From: a virus
Lineage: Duplodnaviria; Heunggongvirae; Uroviricota; Caudoviricetes
Virus record (IMG/VR): IMGVR_UViG_2657244940_000009
Span: 1 to 8,998 of that record
Strand: one strand, 5' to 3'
Length of the DNA: 8,998 nucleotides
Below, in pieces: positions 1-6,449 of this stretch (the first letter of the stretch is position 1; each line of letters opens with the position of its first letter). The notes under the pieces are model-generated. The model worked only from the letters and a program-made list of their open reading frames with translations. It was not told the DNA's origin and ran no database searches. The position numbers were made by a program, and so were the translations under genes.

Positions 1-237
1 CAACGGTTCGTTCCCTTCACATAACCCGGCAGCAACATCCATGAAAAACTGCTTCGCCTGCTTTTTCGCCTCAGCTTCGTAAAACTCCAGCGTGGCACCT
101 TCAGTACGGTCAAGACTAATCGCCACATTTGCCAACAACAGTGACGGATACCCACCAATTTCCAGTGCCACAGTAACAGTAATCTTATCCGGGTAATGAT
201 TTATCCCTTTAACAACCAGTTCGTATTTTTTCTTCAT
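1..237 (-). CDS. Hypothetical protein, 5' part only (79 codons, continues off the left edge); not a recognisable endolysin
   Basis: Manual reverse-strand translation from ATG at 237..235: MKKKYELVVKGINHYPDKITVTVALEIGGYPSLLLANVAISLDRTEGATLEFYEAEAKKQAKQFFMDVAAGLCEGNEPL, no stop before position 1. Absent from the ORF track because it is open-ended. Starts 4 nt after the holin stop. Confidence 0.45.
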   Translation of the reverse strand, partial: MKKKYELVVKGINHYPDKITVTVALEIGGYPSLLLANVAISLDRTEGATLEFYEAEAKKQAKQFFMDVAAGLCEGNEPL

Positions 238-241
238 CGCT

Positions 242-457
242 TTACTCTCCCCGCGCCGCCTTACGACGGTCCTCTCTGATTTTGAAATACAGGTTAGTCA
301 GATATGTCAGCAGCCCAAACAGCAGACTTCCCAGTACGCCTATTGCCGCCCACTGAGACGGGGAAACCCTGTCCAGCAGCTGCAGGAACCAGTAGCCCGT
401 CCCCACCGCTGACGTGGTGTATGACACACCTGTTGTGATTTTTTCCATCTGGTACAT
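242..457 (-). CDS. S: Holin, S21/Stx-phage type (class II, pinholin-like), 71 aa
   Basis: Track ORF of 71 aa; sequence matches my recollection of the 933W/phage 21 holin family ([36 protein letters not shown]). Dual-start motif M1-Y-Q-M4; GGGAG Shine-Dalgarno upstream. Confidence 0.9.
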
Positions 458-532
458 ACCCCGTCTCCCGCAATCCGGAAGCTCACAACAACAAGAGGGG
501 CATCAGCTCACACCGACAGCCCCTGCGCATGG

Positions 533-802
533 TTACATCATCATTTCGCCGTCAGGCTGAGGCTCACTGCTACCATCAGGCTGAGACCCGACGCCATCTG
601 AAACAGCACTGTCATCCGCAATGCCTTCCGGCTCCGGAACAGTCGGTGCGCCCAGCAGTTCATCCAGAATGGCATCCACTTCTGCATCAAGACGCTCCTC
701 AAGGTTCTGCCGAAGTTGCTGTTTCAGTGCGCTTCTGACTTCTTCAGAGCGCAGGACTTCCTTCACTGCTTCAGCAGTGACCAGCGATTTTATTTCTGAC
801 AT
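533..802 (-). CDS. Hypothetical acidic protein, 89 aa (start taken at internal ATG; the track's 127-aa version would overlap the upstream ORF)
   Basis: Track ORF 533..916 uses a non-ATG start and overlaps ORF 840..1022. The internal ATG at 802..800 gives MSEIKSLVTAEAVKEVLRSEEV...PDGEMMM. Shine-Dalgarno is weak; no family recognised. Confidence 0.45.
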   Translation of the reverse strand: MSEIKSLVTAEAVKEVLRSEEVRSALKQQLRQNLEERLDAEVDAILDELLGAPTVPEPEGIADDSAVSDGVGSQPDGSSEPQPDGEMMM

Positions 803-839
803 GGTATTTTCTCGTTGAAAGGTGTTGTTAAGAAAGTTG

Positions 840-1022
840 CTACGGAATGAGAGGCTCTTCGGGTTTTGTTCCGGCTGACTGACTGGCACTGATTTTCTCA
901 GCGGCCCTTTTGTCAATCTGTCTGCGCCAGAAATCTCTCACGACTCTGTACCCACCAGAAAGAAGATACAGCACACAAACTGCTGTACAGAAATACAACA
1001 TAATCAGCTGTAAAAATGTCAT
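840..1022 (-). CDS. Small membrane protein, 60 aa, one N-terminal transmembrane helix and a basic C-terminal tail
   Basis: ATG at 1022..1020 preceded by GGAG at suitable spacing (GGAGATGAATAATATG on the minus strand); hydrophobic stretch LQLIMLYFCTAVCVLYLL. Confidence 0.55.
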   Translation of the reverse strand: MTFLQLIMLYFCTAVCVLYLLSGGYRVVRDFWRRQIDKRAAEKISASQSAGTKPEEPLIP

Positions 1023-1171
1023 TATTCATCTCCATTATTGACATGGTCAATGCCTGCCAGTAAAAAACTCCTGCATTTTTTGCTCAGCATATTTTTGCTA
1101 AGGATGTAGCGACTTCTGCCGCCGGTTCTGGCTCCTTGTTTTCCCTGCCACGGCGGTCTTTTTTTTCCTGC

Positions 1172-3115
1172 TTACGGGTTATTCACTTCCACTGTTATAC
1201 TTTCAATCAGCACCGTATACGTCGCCGCTTTTGTGATATCCGTTACACGTAATTTGTCTGCCGCAAAAGAACCTACCGGAGACTGCGACAGCATGAACGG
1301 TGCACCATCCTGACCATCAATCACCGGCGTCACCTGAATGCTGTTATTACCGGCAAAACGGAAGCCCAGCGTATGCCATTCGTTGTCAAATGCGCCGAAT
1401 GACCCCAGCTTCGTGTTCTGGTCAGCGTTACCCTTGTGGTACATCACGTTGAGGTCTGTGGCATCGCTCTGTACGTAAAACGACGCCAGCAGATTGTTAC
1501 CGGCATTACCTTCCAGTGTGACACCCTGAGGCAATGAAGAAACCGGCCAGTACAGCGCCAGTGCGTACTGATTAGCCGTAAGCGCGCCATCGAGTTTAAA
1601 ACGACAACTGACAAGACCACCTTTACCCAGCAGGTCCGCACCATTACCAGCATCATGCTCAAGGTACCAGGGGGCTCTTCCTGTTTCCTTGGTCAGTTTC
1701 ATTGCCTTACCCCCGCTGGCTCCGGCATCATCCACGATTTGAGCCTTGCCACCTCCAGCAGCCCAACCCTGTGGTGTCAACCGTCCTTCAGACTCAGATG
1801 CCCGGTAAGCAAATAGCGTACTCATCGTCGTGGTGTCTGCGGGTGGCGTGGACGGTTTTGATGGTGTATCAGGTGACGGCTTCTCATCCGGTGGTGTCAC
1901 GGTCTGCCCGCGCATCAATTCAGCCGTGCGCCCTGCATGGAGCATAATAGCTGAGGCCAGACGGTCTGAAATGACGCCCCTGCGTGCCCATGAGCTGAAA
2001 TGGCTGTCACGCTGTGTCGAAACAAAACTGCCCTGGGTTCGGGATGCTGCACCGTAATACCCGACAGCCACAATATCCGGGTCTTCCGCCGGAGCATTCG
2101 TTGGCGTGCTCTGTCCATTCTCATCCGTCAGGAACGGTACAAAGAAAATATTCTGTGCTTCCCTGCCCTTGTAACCGCCATATACCGCCTCATATTTATC
2201 GGCGTTAAGATTCTTCCAGTAATACGTGGTGTCACCACAAATCCACGGCACCGAGCCAGCACTTCCGCCAACACACTGTGCAGAATATGCAGCCATATCA
2301 GCCCTGAACTGCTGCACCATAGTGGTAAACAGGCCGCTGTGCTGCTGACTGCCGTCCGCAAGATCATTTTCCCCCTGCATCCATACCACGGCCAGAAGCC
2401 TGTTTTTCGGGTTCTTCGACAGCGCCGCTTTTGTACGGAAGAGAAAATCCTGATACAGCGGTTTACCCACTCCCCAGCGGGCTGAATTTGCCGATGCGCC
2501 AGACGTTTCGCTGAACGTGCCGTCATTACCCACGGTTAAACCAGACCCGCCACGGCAACAGGGCACCAGAAGAATCCCGGCATTCTGCGGGATATAAGGC
2601 AGCAGTTTTTTGGCAATATGCAGCCCCTGACCGACAGTCCCGTACTGGCCCTTACTCAGGTCTGCATGAGGATGGTTAAGTGCGCTCATGTCCTGAACAT
2701 CATGCAGACAGTGGTCTGCCGGAATAACGTCATTGTATGCACAGATATCACCACCCGGCGTCACAGTGCTGCGACGGGCCAGCTGCTTAATACGGGAGTC
2801 AGGGCGATCATAGGTCTCCGGCAGAGGAAGCCCCTCACCATAGGCCATACCGTTCGACTGCCCGGCCAGGGGAATAACGTAGTAATACTCCGGTTCAGTG
2901 GTAGCCACTCCCGGAGAGCCACCAGCCCCTGTGTCGGGCACAACCACAGGCGTGGTCACATCACCCTCTGCGGCAATGGCCTGCATCAGTGTATAAGGCG
3001 TGATAGCCACAGGACTGCCAAACGGCTGCCAGCCTTCCTTCAGTTTTTGTGTCAGTCGCTCCGCAAGGTCTGACGGCGACGCCGCCCTGACCACGTCATA
3101 GTGTTTAAATGCCAT
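1172..3115 (-). CDS. nanS-p: Prophage sialate O-acetylesterase NanS-p (N-terminal DUF1737-like region plus SASA/SGNH esterase), 647 aa
   Basis: Track ORF 1172..3145 starts at TTG; the ATG at 3115..3113 has a strong Shine-Dalgarno (GGGGAGGAATA-ATG) and gives MAFKHYDVVRAASPSDLAERL, the N-terminus I recall for Stx-phage NanS-p. GQSN motif (IPLAGQSNGMAYGEG) is the SASA esterase block. Position (downstream of Q/tRNAs, upstream of holin) matches Stx prophages. Confidence 0.85.
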   Translation of the reverse strand: MAFKHYDVVRAASPSDLAERLTQKLKEGWQPFGSPVAITPYTLMQAIAAEGDVTTPVVVPDTGAGGSPGVATTEPEYYYVIPLAGQSNGMAYGEGLPLPETYDRPDSRIKQLARRSTVTPGGDICAYNDVIPADHCLHDVQDMSALNHPHADLSKGQYGTVGQGLHIAKKLLPYIPQNAGILLVPCCRGGSGLTVGNDGTFSETSGASANSARWGVGKPLYQDFLFRTKAALSKNPKNRLLAVVWMQGENDLADGSQQHSGLFTTMVQQFRADMAAYSAQCVGGSAGSVPWICGDTTYYWKNLNADKYEAVYGGYKGREAQNIFFVPFLTDENGQSTPTNAPAEDPDIVAVGYYGAASRTQGSFVSTQRDSHFSSWARRGVISDRLASAIMLHAGRTAELMRGQTVTPPDEKPSPDTPSKPSTPPADTTTMSTLFAYRASESEGRLTPQGWAAGGGKAQIVDDAGASGGKAMKLTKETGRAPWYLEHDAGNGADLLGKGGLVSCRFKLDGALTANQYALALYWPVSSLPQGVTLEGNAGNNLLASFYVQSDATDLNVMYHKGNADQNTKLGSFGAFDNEWHTLGFRFAGNNSIQVTPVIDGQDGAPFMLSQSPVGSFAADKLRVTDITKAATYTVLIESITVEVNNP

Positions 3116-3203
3116 TATTCCTCCCCTTTCCGGGATTTTCCTCAACAGTTGCGGGCCACGGTCCGGCTACACGGAGAATCAAAAGAGGAGAACCGCAGCC
3201 CGC

Positions 3204-3234
3204 AAAACGAAAAAGGCCGCGCAGTTGCGCAGCC
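3204..3234 (-). terminator. Candidate intrinsic terminator or attenuator in the nanS-p leader
   Basis: Minus-strand stem GGCTGCGC / GCGCGGCC (8 bp, one G-U), loop AACT, followed by TTTTTCGTTTT. Confidence 0.45.
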
Positions 3235-3298
3235 TTATCACAGATGGTAAAAATCAGAACACGATAATAAAAATACCTGATGTATATTCATGCGACCC

Positions 3299-3326
3299 GC
3301 CCGCCACTCACTGCGGGCTTTTTTTT
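3299..3326 (+). terminator. Plus-strand intrinsic terminator-like hairpin (opposite to flanking genes)
   Basis: gcccgc (3299-3304) / gcgggc (3313-3318), 8-nt loop, then T8 (3319-3326). Confidence 0.45.
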
Positions 3327-3334
3327 GCCCATAG

Positions 3335-3361
3335 AAAAGCCCCTCCGGAGAGGGGCTTTTT
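3335..3361. terminator. Bidirectional intrinsic terminator
   Basis: Perfect 7-bp stem gcccctc / gaggggc with 4-nt loop, flanked by AAAA on one side and TTTTT on the other, so a T-run follows the stem on either strand. Confidence 0.6.
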
Positions 3362-3601
3362 ACAGTGGTAGTGTAGACAATTTTGCATGGTGCCGGGTGC
3401 CTCCCGGTGAGTTCAGTATCAGCACCTGAACCCGCACAGAAAGGATAAGGGTCGGTGACAAAACACCAGTTGCTGATTGCCCCTCCGCTTAGGGGGATTC
3501 ACCATGCCAGTTTCTTTTAACAAACTCCCCGCAAACCAGACAACAGTCAACCGCCTGAATTGTGAGGTATTTAAAAATTTCAACGGGTAACTGATACCCT
3601 G

Positions 3602-3763
3602 CTAATCGCCTGATGCTTTCTTTTTCAGCAACGGGAAAGCAACAACCACCACACCCGCCACCAGCACACCGTCAGCCAGCACTGACATTATCCGGCTGCT
3701 GAAGTCCACCATCACCACCATCACCACCAGAAACAGCAGGAGCGCAACCACAGCCAGACGCAT
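3602..3763 (-). CDS. Small hydrophobic protein, 53 aa, two predicted membrane helices; start 8 nt after the TerB-like stop
   Basis: Manual translation: MRLAVVALLLFLVVMVVMVDFSSRIMSVLADGVLVAGVVVVAFPLLKKKASGD. Below the ORF-track size cut-off. Weak Shine-Dalgarno and a repetitive GTG/CAC-rich sequence, so a chance ORF is possible. Confidence 0.3.
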   Translation of the reverse strand: MRLAVVALLLFLVVMVVMVDFSSRIMSVLADGVLVAGVVVVAFPLLKKKASGD

Positions 3764-3771
3764 TTTTACCG

Positions 3772-4203
3772 TCACAGATGATTCTCCAGACGAAGGCCCA
3801 GAACACCGGCAATCTCTTCCAGCACCTTGCGCTCTTCCGGCTCTATTTCGCCGTCTGCTTCGGCAATGGCCACCGCCACATCCAGCACGTCTTCCGCTTC
3901 ACGCGTATCGTGTTTCACATCCTCGATCTCACGTAACGCCGCTCGACGACCAATTTTAAAGTTCGTATCCAGCTGACCGATAATGGTTGCGCTAATCGCA
4001 TTAATTTCTGACGTAAACGCGGACAACGCAGGCTGGTTACGCAAGACCTGCTCGATCTTCGCTTTCTCTGAAGCCTCACATTCACCATCTGCATAGGCCA
4101 CCAGATAGGCAGCATTAATAACCGCCTGTGCCAGATCACGTTTCTCAAACTTTTTAATTTCCACTGCCGCTCGGCGGGCTTTTTTACCAAAAATACCAAA
4201 CAT
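3772..4203 (-). CDS. TerB-like (tellurite-resistance TerB family) domain protein, 143 aa
   Basis: Track ORF 3772..4275 starts at a non-ATG codon; ATG at 4203..4201 has AAGGAA 7-8 nt upstream and gives MFGIFGKKARRAAVEIKKF. Two TerB-like segments (AAYLVAYADGECEASEKAKIEQVL and VAVAIAEADGEIEPEERKVLEEIAGVLGL) resemble the helix-aDG-helix repeats of TerB as I recall them. Confidence 0.65.
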   Translation of the reverse strand: MFGIFGKKARRAAVEIKKFEKRDLAQAVINAAYLVAYADGECEASEKAKIEQVLRNQPALSAFTSEINAISATIIGQLDTNFKIGRRAALREIEDVKHDTREAEDVLDVAVAIAEADGEIEPEERKVLEEIAGVLGLRLENHL

Positions 4204-4335
4204 CGTGACGTTCCTTTGGGTGGGTGAGCCAACGCCCGGGAGCGATCTGCCCACAGAGAAAGTCACACTGACCACTCCGTAAGCTCACCCCCGAAAGGCT
4301 CTGTGGTTGATATGCGCCGGGCGTGGCGCAGATAC

Positions 4336-4358
4336 AAAAAAAGCCCGCCGAAGCGAGC
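4336..4358 (-). terminator. Intrinsic terminator after the tRNA cluster
   Basis: Minus-strand GCTCGC-TTCG-GCGGGC (one G-U) followed by TTTTTTT. Confidence 0.6.
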
Positions 4359-4371
4359 CTGATAATAAATC

Positions 4372-4446
4372 TGGAGCGGGTAGCGGGAATCGAACCCGCA
4401 TCATCAGCCTGGAAGGCTGAGGTAATAGCCATTATACGGTACCCGC
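4372..4446 (-). tRNA. tRNA-Gly (anticodon TCC), phage-borne, glyT-like
   Basis: Hand-folded: perfect 7-bp acceptor GCGGGTA/TACCCGC, anticodon stem TCAGC/GCTGA, loop CTTCCAG, T-arm GCGGG-TTCGATT-CCCGC, discriminator U, encoded CCA. Position 8 is C rather than the usual U. Confidence 0.75.
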
Positions 4447-4449
4447 ATA

Positions 4450-4525
4450 TGGTGCCGGCTACCGGAATCGAACTGGCGACCTGATGATTACAAGTCAGTT
4501 GCTCTACCATTGGAGCTAAACCAGC
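4450..4525 (-). tRNA. tRNA-Thr-like (anticodon TGT) with degenerate anticodon and T stems; possibly a pseudo-tRNA
   Basis: Acceptor GCTGGTT/AGCCGGC pairs with two G-U; canonical D-arm GCTC-CAATGGTA-GAGC; anticodon stem only 3 bp with loop CTTGTAA; T-stem has one mismatch; discriminator A; encoded CCA. Confidence 0.5.
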
Positions 4526-4530
4526 ATGTT

Positions 4531-4605
4531 TGGCGGGACAGCGTGGACTCGAACCACGATAAGAAGGTTAACAGCCTTCCGTAATGACCTTTATACGACT
4601 GACCC
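4531..4605 (-). tRNA. tRNA-Asn (anticodon GTT), phage-borne
   Basis: Perfect anticodon stem GAAGG/CCTTC with loop CTGTTAA; perfect T-arm CGTGG-TTCGAGT-CCACG; acceptor GGGTCAG/CTGTCCC with one mismatch; discriminator G; encoded CCA. Confidence 0.7.
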
Positions 4606-4609
4606 AAAT

Positions 4610-4651
4610 AAAAAAAGCCACCGTTGCAACTTAAGAGTCACTAACGGCAGC
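4610..4651 (-). terminator. tR'-like terminator between Q and the tRNA genes
   Basis: Minus-strand 9-bp stem GCUGCCGUU / AACGGUGGC (two G-U) with a 17-nt loop, followed by TTTTTTTATTT that abuts the 5' end of tRNA-Asn. Confidence 0.45.
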
Positions 4652-4696
4652 ATATGCCAATAGTGTTGCTCATTTGCTCAATGATGTCAACACGTC
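4652..4696 (-). promoter_or_regulatory. Candidate pR'-like late promoter / Q-utilisation region
   Basis: Consensus -35 hexamer TTGACA on the minus strand at 4690..4685, just after the Q stop; I could not identify a convincing -10, so this is positional inference from lambdoid architecture. Confidence 0.25.
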
Positions 4697-5185
4697 CTAT
4701 GCTACATGTTTAATTTTCTCTACACGTTTCCGGTTTTTAAACGCACTATCCAGAACCGGGTAAATCATAAACAACGAGGCATTAAGGATTTCGTCAACTT
4801 CCCGTCGACAGGTTGCGAGCGATGGTTTTTGAATGCGCCCGCCGCCCCGGCATAACATCTTGCGAGGTCTTGCGACGCAATGATAGTAAGATGCAATGGC
4901 GTGCCTGGAAGAACCATGAGCGTAGTAGCTGAGGAGGATGCCGAAGGCTTTCTTGTCAATGTACATGACGGAATCGACGACCTGAGAAATCAACATTCCA
5001 TCATCATCATTACACATTGGCCTTGTCATAACTCTTCCCGGCTCTACGCTCTCCATGAACTTCGCTATTACGCTGCTCATGCGCTTTTCCAGACGACCTG
5101 AATAAACCCATGCGCCCCACAGTTCAAGCCAGCCATTCAGCCACTCGTGCTGTTCTTTGGTGAGGTTTAGTTCTCTTATGCCCAC
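4697..5185 (-). CDS. Q: Late antiterminator Q (phage antitermination Q family), 162 aa; start codon uncertain
   Basis: WGAW motif and Cys/His cluster ([14 protein letters not shown]) as in Q proteins of 933W-type phages as I recall them; immediately downstream of ninI with a 10-nt overlap; track start is GTG with GGAG/AAGG upstream. Confidence 0.8.
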
Positions 5186-5847
5186 GCGCCTTCTCCCTGT
5201 ACCTGAATCAATGTGAGGTTTCCGCAGAACACTGCGCCGGTATCGATATACATCTGGTTGGCAAACTTGAGTGGTTTCACTGCTGGCGTATGACCAAAGA
5301 TGAACGTGTCCGCGCCTTTAATTTCTTTCACGATCCCGTCTTGTGAGTTGCCGATTCGTTCGCGGTTCCAGATTACCTGCTGAGGATCAACTGGCTTTCC
5401 AAATTCGTATTCGTTACAAGGATAATCGGCGTGGCAAATGACATATTTTTTATCTTTGCTCACCAGTTCGATGATTAACGGAAGTTCTTCTGCTTTATGG
5501 GCAAGAGCTTTAGCCAGAATCTCTTTGTCGTAATCGAGATTGAAGAACCAGCCACCGCCATTAAGCAGCCAGTGATTAACGTTTCCACGCTCTGATAAGC
5601 CATCAATCATCATTTGCTCATGGTTTCCACGTACAGCTCTGAACCAGGGGAATGTGATTAATTCCAGACATTCGACGTTCTCTGTACCGCGATCAACCAA
5701 ATCGCCAACCGAGATGAGCAGGTCTTTTTTGTTGTCGAATCCAATCGTATCCAGTTTGTTCATCAGGTTCGTGTAGCATCCGTGCAGGTCGCCAGCTACC
5801 CAAATATTTCGGTATTTGCTGCCATCAATTCTTTCGTAGATATTCAT
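5176..5847 (-). CDS. ninI: NinI Ser/Thr protein phosphatase (lambda PPase homologue), 223 aa
   Basis: Near-identity over most of the length to lambda phosphatase as I recall it; metallophosphoesterase motifs GDLHG, GDLVDRG, GNHE; ATGA overlap with the ninG stop. Confidence 0.95.
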
Positions 5848-6449
5848 GCAGCCTCACTTCTGCTATTTCGCAGTTTTTTAAGTTTCTGTTGGTACTCTTC
5901 CTTGATCGCCTTGCACTCTTCGACAGTCCAGCGATGGCGGTTATGGTTTGATTCGATTTCATCTACTGCTTCCTGCCCGATGCGGCTAATCAGTTCGACG
6001 CGATACGGAACGAGATTTCCGCTTTTGTGCTGGTTGCACACCACGCATTGCTTGTGAATATTGCGTTCATCAAATCGGAGTTGAGGTGCCGCAGCAGTTG
6101 TCCGGTAATGTCCGGCATCCCACTGAGCAGACGTGAGCGTTCCGCACGAGATACATGGTAAGTCGCGGTCTCTTTCTCTGATGAAGGCGTTTACGGCTTG
6201 TTGGGCTTGTTTAATCCAGTAACTGCGGGGCTTTAAGGCGAGTTTTCGAATCTTCAGTTTATCTTTCTGTTTCTGCTCCTCTCGTCGTCGTTTCTTCTCT
6301 GCTGCTTTTTCCGCTTTTTCGCGTTCTTTACTTCGTCGTTCGAGTGCTAATTGAGTTCCGTGTTCCGGGCAGCACCACCACTGATTTGAGAATGCCGGGT
6401 GAAACCATTCTTTGCATATTTTGCATTTCCTTCGCGCTGGTTTAGCCAT
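5844..6449 (-). CDS. ninG: NinG (Rap) protein, 201 aa
   Basis: Strong match to lambda NinG as I recall it ([65 protein letters not shown]); Cys-rich motifs; TAATG overlap with the upstream gene. Confidence 0.95.

Follow-up and report, generated by a model that had tools for sequence, protein, structure and literature searches.

A lambdoid-prophage version of the phage P1 tciA-tciB gene pair in the cargo slot of stx2AB

Operons for tellurite resistance (ter operons) are also known for their phage-inhibition and colicin-resistance phenotypes. Phage P1 carries, according to its GenBank record, on which our statements on P1 rest, three genes named tciA, tciB and tciC, of which tciA encodes a TerB-like protein and tciB a protein of the DUF3927 family. 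TerB itself has been reported to be membrane associated and, as far as the accounts cited in PMC11003894 go, to be the partner of the integral membrane protein TerC; Bunzi, Shango and Dionysus, defence systems linked to membranes, likewise contain TerB domains. Here we describe a homologous gene pair in a stretch of 8,998 nucleotides (nt) from a virus of the Caudoviricetes (IMG/VR record IMGVR_UViG_2657244940_000009, positions 1 to 8,998), from here on called the window. The locus is the lambdoid-prophage version of the P1 tciA-tciB module, its two genes being coupled by a GTGA overlap, and it fills the place that in Shiga toxin (Stx) phages is taken by stx2AB.

The first gene of the pair (4203 to 3772, minus strand) encodes a protein of 143 amino acids that a first-pass annotation, made from the letters of the window alone, had called TerB-like, and profile searches agreed. 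Pfam TerB (PF05099) matched residues 26-138 on profile positions 2-109 of 118 with 59.8 bits (E 3.9e-16; cutoff 24.4), and phmmer against the Protein Data Bank aligned residues 15-137 with residues 21-144 of the chain of Klebsiella TerB (2JXU, E 6e-8). With TciA of P1 (AF234172) the protein shares 41% identity over 143 amino acids (tblastn, E 2e-22), and it matches PHROG 632, labelled 'tellurite resistance', at E 3e-69. An AlphaFold2 model computed with 30 homologues was all-helical (pLDDT 87.4); the top Foldseek matches of this model were TerB-like, 2H5N leading (probability 1.00, TM score 0.55-0.64) and 2OU3 coming at rank 13, with E-values of 0.02-1.7 that are weak. The start at ATG 4203 is preceded at a distance of 8 nt by AAGGA, the Shine-Dalgarno sequence already pointed out in the first-pass annotation. 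A GTG-extended open reading frame (ORF) of 167 amino acids starting at 4275 was considered and rejected, since the homologues all start at a conserved MFGxF and the NCBI annotation pipeline PGAP also uses ATG 4203.

TciA contains two D-G-x5-E motifs (D39 G40 E46 and D117 G118 E124) that are invariant in seven diverged phage homologues. The duplicated acidic motif of the TerB family is a proposed ligand or metal site. The first 22 residues form a basic amphipathic stretch with a charge of +5/+6 and a hydrophobic moment (muH) of 0.5-0.65, the remainder of the protein being acidic, and the N-terminal motif M-F/L-G-x-F-x-K-K is common to all phage clades examined. Where synonymous sites were unsaturated, the ratio of nonsynonymous to synonymous substitution rates (dN/dS) was 0.03-0.41, which indicates purifying selection.

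The second gene (3775 to 3602, minus strand) encodes a small protein that matches Pfam DUF3927 (PF13064) with 70.8 bits (E 9e-20; cutoff 25; P1 TciB scores 106.4 bits) and PHROG 1470, whose label reads 'TciB-like inhibition of cell division or resistance to colicin'; its identity with P1 TciB is 44%. It had first been taken for an ORF of 53 amino acids that begins at ATG 3763 after a spacer of 8 nt. Several points speak against this start. GTG 3775 overlaps the TGA stop codon of tciA as GTGA, the homologues from P1, D6, Klebsiella, Actinobacillus and N4-like phages align from this GTG (the N-termini are MVIKARL in P1 and (V)TVKMRL in the window), and PGAP uses it too; moreover, ATG 3763 cannot be the general start because the O157 allele has Leu at the place of the internal Met. 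As judged from these alignments, TciB most likely starts at GTG 3775 and has 57 amino acids.

In TciB the sequence DFSSR stands between two hydrophobic segments, one of 18 and one of 22 residues, and Lys/Arg are found at both ends. R6, D24, S31, D35, G36 and P48 are invariant across diverged homologues, and dN/dS, again where synonymous sites were unsaturated, was 0.23-0.38, indicative of purifying selection. Conservation of the small ORF, which the first-pass annotation had put up as a check, is thus given: the gene is conserved, under selection and translationally coupled to the TerB gene. The protein of the window is identical to one found on 443 contigs, and the alleles in E. coli (54, 57 and 58 amino acids) differ in length only by in-frame VVM repeats. 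A tandem in-frame 9-nt repeat, two copies of GTGATGGTG, lies at 3700-3730 (minus strand) and encodes residues 17-23 in the first hydrophobic segment. The DUF3927 family is small: clustered at 50% identity, its members among 1.84 billion proteins come down to 120 representatives, almost all of them 50-65 amino acids long. Its profile scored above threshold for the proteins of the window, P1, N4-like phages, the Actinobacillus phage and LIET2, below it for the jumbo-phage protein, and did not match the ORF of a Paracoccus phage. A tblastn search of the phage collection with the 57 amino acids of TciB found only phage JLK-2012, as low-complexity masking removes the hydrophobic core, and was replaced by a scan with the hidden Markov model. 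That TciB might be a fragment of a TerC-like protein was also considered; at E<=10 there was no meaningful Pfam match besides DUF3927.

To define the slot of the pair, the window was compared by blastn with the annotated Stx2a prophage AP012531, in which the order is Q, ileZ-argN-argO, stx2A, stx2B, a spacer of ~490 nt, an esterase gene and the holin gene. On the Q side, homology stops at window position 4325 (block 4396-4325), just past the last tRNA gene and a terminator; it resumes at 3565, which corresponds to 46 nt past stx2B in AP012531 and is 36 nt past the stop codon of the DUF3927 gene in the window. The exchangeable cassette therefore spans 3566-4324, with the TerB/DUF3927 pair as its sole content where AP012531 has stx2A and stx2B. 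The tciAB cassette stands exactly in place of stx2AB, with the tRNA terminator on one side and the small RNA (sRNA) STnc100 on the other. In a non-stx prophage of E. coli O157:H7 the order is Q, tRNA genes Ile-Arg-Arg (the Stx-type set), TerB, DUF3927 and SASA esterase. The proposal of the first-pass annotation that the pair sits in the stx-equivalent slot was borne out. The slot is a known moron position, and the module is an exchangeable cargo cassette.

STnc100 lies 75 nt downstream of the stx2 operon (PMC12370729) and is a flank common to hundreds of Stx phage records. In the window it begins 66 nt past the tciB stop codon, and in 67 of 69 related E. coli loci 4-66 nt 3' of tciB; it may be a 3'UTR-derived sRNA of whichever cargo fills the slot. 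The features of interest, all on the minus strand, make up the late-regulatory region of a lambdoid prophage and are, from upstream to downstream:

7246-7638, minus strand: P22AR_C gene, truncated
6449-7177, minus strand: KilAC antirepressor gene
5844-6449, minus strand: ninG
5176-5847, minus strand: Ser/Thr phosphatase gene
4697-5185, minus strand: gene of antiterminator Q, the late-operon regulator, upstream of the pair (Pfam Phage_antitermQ, E 1.4e-24; PGAP 'antiterminator Q family protein' in a 99.6%-identical locus)
4606-4690, minus strand: pR'-like promoter and tR'-like terminator (TTGACA at 4685-4690; hairpin and U7 at ~4606-4651)
4531-4605, minus strand: tRNA-Asn (GTT) (ARAGORN; Rfam 55.3 bits)
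4453-4525, minus strand: tRNA-Thr (Rfam tRNA 49 bits; missed by ARAGORN; annotated as tRNA-Thr by PGAP in NZ_CP042892 and in JLK-2012)
4372-4446, minus strand: tRNA-Gly (TCC) (ARAGORN; Rfam 55.4 bits)
4334-4360, minus strand: intrinsic terminator 3' of the tRNA cluster (stem 4360-4341 of 8 pairs, then a T-run), the upstream bracket of the cassette
3566-4324, minus strand: variable cargo cassette, positional equivalent of stx2AB (blastn against AP012531)
3772-4203, minus strand: tciA homologue, 143-amino-acid cytoplasmic TerB-family protein (PF05099, PHROG 632)
3602-3775, minus strand: tciB homologue, 57-amino-acid DUF3927 membrane protein (PF13064, PHROG 1470; PGAP coordinates)
3327-3536, minus strand: STnc100 sRNA, conserved 3' flank of the slot (Rfam RF02076, full length, 144 bits, E 1e-32; terminator 3340-3353)
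1172-3115, minus strand: nanS-p-type sialate O-acetylesterase gene (Pfam DUF1737, SASA and DUF6645; PGAP 'SASA family carbohydrate esterase')
242-457, minus strand: class II holin S gene, with which the lysis cassette of this operon starts (Pfam Phage_holin_2_1, E 9e-33)

The gene order of the window is kept in a 99.6%-identical stretch of a RefSeq E. coli chromosome. The esterase gene is the next late-operon gene after the pair and aligns with the gene 3' of stx2B in AP012531. A scan for terminator-like hairpins with T-runs, which found 5 sites where 1.7 were expected, placed two on the minus strand at 4360-4341 and 3353-3340. Hairpins are thus found on both sides of the pair, as the first-pass annotation had it; the downstream one is the terminator of STnc100 (Rfam, 144 bits) and not a dedicated end of the cassette. 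The gap between STnc100 and the esterase gene contains two more such hairpins, at 3299-3318 (plus strand, with no obvious gene belonging to it) and at 3213-3236 (minus strand).

At its other end the prophage stops abruptly at ~7660 within the 5'-truncated P22AR_C gene (130 amino acids versus 224 in a relative), 80 nt from the stop codon of ogt. The sRNA McaS lies 3' of ogt with no abg operon in between, and the right end of the window matches IS1 (junction, ogt, McaS and IS1 at ~7640-7740, 7741-8256, 8603-8698 and ~8756-8998). Among the complete E. coli genomes of the collection, none runs across the junction between prophage and ogt.

Whether the pairing had been annotated before was a question left by the first-pass annotation. 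Public annotation already covers the two genes, how they are paired and where they lie, and there is nothing new in them. Besides the PHROG labels and the gene names of P1, PGAP calls the first gene of the RefSeq locus with 99.6% identity a 'tellurite resistance TerB family protein' and the second a 'DUF3927 family protein', and in phage JLK-2012 from E. coli O55:H7 genes of 99% identity are named tciA and tciB in the same position. A preprint of the Storz laboratory lists TerB (PF05099) among the conserved neighbours of the prophage sRNAs PasA and PasC.

At megablast stringency, at least 80% of the 602-nt pair was found in 789 of 5,426 complete E. coli genomes and some part of it in 2,363. 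An ORF of ~50-60 codons directly 3' of the TerB gene, its start codon overlapping or abutting the TerB stop, is present in P1, D6, Klebsiella phage ST13-OXA48phi12.3, Escherichia phage Fostie, an Actinobacillus phage, Pantoea phage LIET2 and Pseudomonas phage ZY21, and also in the virulent N4-like Salmonella phage UTK0002 and the virulent jumbo Machinaviruses of Erwinia and Salmonella. In 12 diverse phages the stop and start codons overlap or abut (GTGA, ATGA, TAATG or TGATG; ATGA in P1). DUF3927 matched directly 3' of TerB on the same strand in 176 of 183 fetched TerB loci, a phylogenetically redundant set, and in 8 of 9 species-representative bacterial genomes (9 loci from a narrow scan with a TciA alignment); viral scans seeded with TerB of LIET2 or PMBT3 yielded 3 loci each. 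By these comparisons the pair goes back much further, and is spread much more widely, than lambdoid prophages.

The tciAB genes adjoin tRNA genes in unrelated phage lineages: Asn-Thr-Gly in the window, Ile-Arg-Arg in O157, Asn-Thr...Ile in P1, Asn-Thr-Ser in D6, Trp-Cys...Tyr-Gln-Ile-Met in the jumbo phages and Arg in ZY21. This recurrent adjacency may reflect a shared mobile cassette or co-regulation. In DLP12-like prophages of E. coli, truncated DUF3927 remnants of 43 and 28 amino acids (2969-3100 and 3009-3095 of their loci) are found 3' of Q and tRNA genes where TerB has been lost, which shows that the cassette has decayed in some prophages. In Candidatus Pantoea communis a locus (2894-6079) in a different, chromosomal context holds four tandem TerB-like ORFs and no DUF3927 partner.

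When the pair is expressed can be estimated from the signals around it. The interval between Q and the esterase gene contains three terminators: the tR'-like one, the one after the tRNA genes and that of STnc100. The tR'-like hairpin (~4606-4651) has a folding energy of -18.4 kcal/mol (z -3.4) and is followed by U7, and the best -35/-10 match in the gap between Q and the tRNA genes scores 9/12, so that the region 4606-4690 looks like a lambdoid unit of late promoter and tR'. Upstream of tciA, the best promoter match within 169 nt scores 7/12, and the 137 nt that separate the post-tRNA terminator from the start of the gene are free of TANNNT. In P1, tciABC are located in the C1-repressed ban operon, downstream of a C1-controlled operator and promoters, and the transcriptome of P1vir contains tciA, tciB and tciC transcripts during infection. 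In Fostie and the Actinobacillus phage, tciAB lie directly upstream of the holin gene. From the terminators, the failure to find a promoter, the ban operon of P1, the adjacency to holin genes and the virulent carriers we infer that tciAB would be expressed mainly in the lytic phase, like stx2 from a Q-antiterminated late transcript, and not in quiescent lysogens. The transcript would run pR'-tR'-tRNAs-terminator-tciAB-STnc100-nanS-p-holin.

The model that we favour, tentatively and as a whole rated somewhat short of probable, is that TciA and TciB would guard the inner membrane of the cell in which phage is produced, or modify it. TciB would be an inner-membrane helical hairpin, N-in/C-in, with conserved Asp residues. 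TciA would be a peripheral TerB-fold protein that reaches the membrane via its N-terminal amphipathic helix, via TciB or via both, and would carry in its conserved acidic double D-G-x5-E motif a ligand or metal site. The pair could then keep superinfecting phages and pore-forming colicins from entering or doing damage, and could avert an early collapse of the membrane potential that would set off the holin too soon. The link to the membrane leans on the hydropathy of TciB, on the basic and amphipathic N-terminus of TciA and on the reports on TerB and TerB domains given at the outset. The model echoes the phenotypes of phage inhibition and colicin resistance conferred by ter operons and the partnership of TerB with TerC. 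A role in superinfection competition had been suggested earlier for TerB of jumbo phages, as had the idea of exclusion for phage TerB genes (PMC7824862), and exclusion during lytic growth is possible.

A wider proposal, which we regard as doubtful, is that TciA-TciB would be a general device for controlling the inner membrane in the lytic cycle of unrelated phage families, and not one of lysogenic conversion. A TerB-fold sensor would be docked on an Asp-containing micro-protein of two segments, and the device would serve exclusion of superinfecting phages and colicins, protection of the membrane potential or neutralisation of membrane-targeting abortive-infection effectors. With the same reservation, the families that would share it are the lambdoid, P1-like, N4-like, Machinavirus jumbo, Klebsiella, Actinobacillus and Pantoea phages.

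Several observations weigh against the membrane-guard model or the expression pattern on which it builds. In the virulent phages the neighbours of the pair are early or middle genes of DNA metabolism and not lysis genes, and a role in holin timing is therefore not general. TerB occurs without DUF3927 in the Pseudomonas phages PMBT3 and AF and in N4-like phages of Vibrio. Two TerB-DUF3927 'fusions' (P0127 and P0185) were also met with; they look like frameshifted or chimeric gene calls and were not used, and neither were three long DUF3927 matches (P0249, P0289 and P0293) that we read in the same way. AlphaFold2 folded the TciB monomer into one continuous helix of 52 residues, not a hairpin, too little to decide the topology; the two-helix form given in the first-pass annotation is a putative one, deduced from the two hydrophobic segments. 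The consensus scan that detected no minus-strand match of the sigma-70 type in 3150-4750 was a simple one, which weak promoters or promoters for alternative sigma factors could escape, and the copy in this prophage, truncated beside ogt, may be regulated differently. In P1, tciA, tciB and tciC were non-essential in a screen by CRISPR interference (PMC10695390), and we found no experimental work on the function of tciA or tciB in the literature.

The first-pass annotation had seen in the pair a likeness to two-gene exclusion or abortive-infection modules. In a lysogen expressing such a module, TciA would sense infection or membrane stress and TciB would depolarise or seal the membrane to protect the lysogenic population. 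This appeared attractive because the validated defence systems Bunzi, Shango and Dionysus contain TerB domains, the ter operons have phenotypes of phage inhibition and colicin resistance that are reflected in the name of the P1 genes, the slot is a moron position and the pair has stayed intact inside a truncated prophage. We nevertheless consider it unlikely. PADLOC-DB v2 returned neither Shango nor Bunzi nor another convincing match (TciA hit only the candidate system PDC-S48, with E 0.0032 over 35 residues, and TciB nothing at E<=1), partner genes for a helicase, an ATPase or a toxin were not among the ORFs and Pfam matches of the window, the genes lie behind terminators in a late operon with no promoter detected by simple consensus scans, the P1 copy is part of a repressor-controlled lytic operon, and the pair is carried by N4-like and jumbo phages that, being virulent, do not lysogenise. 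The carriage by temperate and virulent phages alike, in lytic-phase transcription units, would agree with counter-defence, in which a TerB-fold decoy and its membrane partner disrupt the membrane-surveillance or pore-forming abortive-infection systems of the host, or mend the damage, so that the lytic cycle is finished. Host defences containing TerB do exist, but this explanation is purely inferential, neither protein resembles known anti-defence proteins, and TciA is closer to TerB of ter operons than to any TerB component in PADLOC; we deem it very unlikely.

A benefit to the host by lysogenic conversion, that is tolerance of tellurite, oxidative stress, metals or colicins as with ter genes, is suggested by the full-length homology to Klebsiella TerB, by the homology-based labels 'tellurite' or 'colicin resistance' and by the high prevalence in pathogenic E. 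coli. Tellurite resistance by ter operons needs at least terBCDE, and TerC, TerD, TerE and TerZ were not found among the ORFs of the window or in the Pfam scans. With these partners absent from the window, expression signals that point to the lytic phase, and virulent carriers that gain nothing from long-term tolerance of their host, we give this explanation little chance. Finally, the genes might in this window be inert passengers of a decaying prophage, kept because the remnant is young. The prophage is indeed cut off at ~7660 in the P22AR_C gene beside ogt, and other E. coli genomes contain truncated DUF3927 remnants without TerB; against this, both ORFs are intact, TciB is identical to the protein on 443 contigs, and the family is under purifying selection and conserved across phage families, and we find it quite unlikely that they are inert.

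Of the cargo slots of lambdoid phages, the pair fills the one that matters most in medicine. At least 15% of the complete E. coli genomes carry it, with non-stx prophages of O157:H7 among the carriers, and it is conserved in virulent phages of several families as well. A simple genetic test could yield the first function of a DUF3927 protein, and work on tciAB could clarify the role of TerB domains at membranes, which is relevant to Shango, Bunzi and Dionysus.

Among the known systems, P1 tciA-tciB is most like the pair of the window: in both, the TerB gene is followed by the DUF3927 gene with overlapping stop and start codons (41% identity for TciA, 44% for TciB), genes of tRNA-Asn and tRNA-Thr are adjacent and the transcription unit is, by its signals, one of the lytic phase. 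They differ in the host element, a lambdoid late operon versus the ban operon of P1, and in tciC, for which the window has no ORF, only 66 nt separating the tciB stop codon (3602) from STnc100 (3536). Unlike P1 TciA, TciA of the window belongs to the D6/Erwinia subclade (motifs AYADGECE and EADGEIEPEE). Klebsiella TerB (2JXU, from terZABCDE) resembles TciA in its Pfam family, in the alignment of residues 15-137, in being all-helical and in its acidic D-G motifs. The basic motif M-F/L-G-x-F-x-K-K, on the other hand, is phage specific and absent from the alignment with 2JXU, the window has no neighbouring TerC, TerD, TerE or TerZ, and the partner is a DUF3927 protein of 57 amino acids instead of the multi-pass TerC.

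With stx2AB of 933W-type phages tciAB share the slot, the two co-oriented genes and, by our reading, the Q-dependent late transcript. The products are unrelated, an AB5 toxin in one case and a TerB-fold protein with a membrane peptide in the other; the tRNA set (Asn-Thr-Gly in the window, Ile-Arg-Arg in Stx phages) and the Q allele differ as well. SngA of Shango, BnzA of Bunzi and DinB of Dionysus are like tciAB in combining a TerB domain with membrane-associated partners, for which 'membrane surveillance' has been proposed. Their partners (helicase/ATPase, pore-forming toxin, MAEBL protein) are absent here, and these systems are chromosomal and constitutively defensive, whereas tciAB are borne by phages, virulent ones included. 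Imm and Sp of T4 and RexAB of lambda offer a plausible likeness, being phage-encoded systems of superinfection exclusion with small, non-essential inner-membrane components; to our knowledge they have no relationship in sequence or family to tciAB, and lysogens express RexAB from the immunity region, while the place of tciAB is the late operon. The locus does not belong to a Ter operon and matches no catalogued defence system: it is a P1-type tciA/tciB module without tciC, built around a protein of the TerB family.

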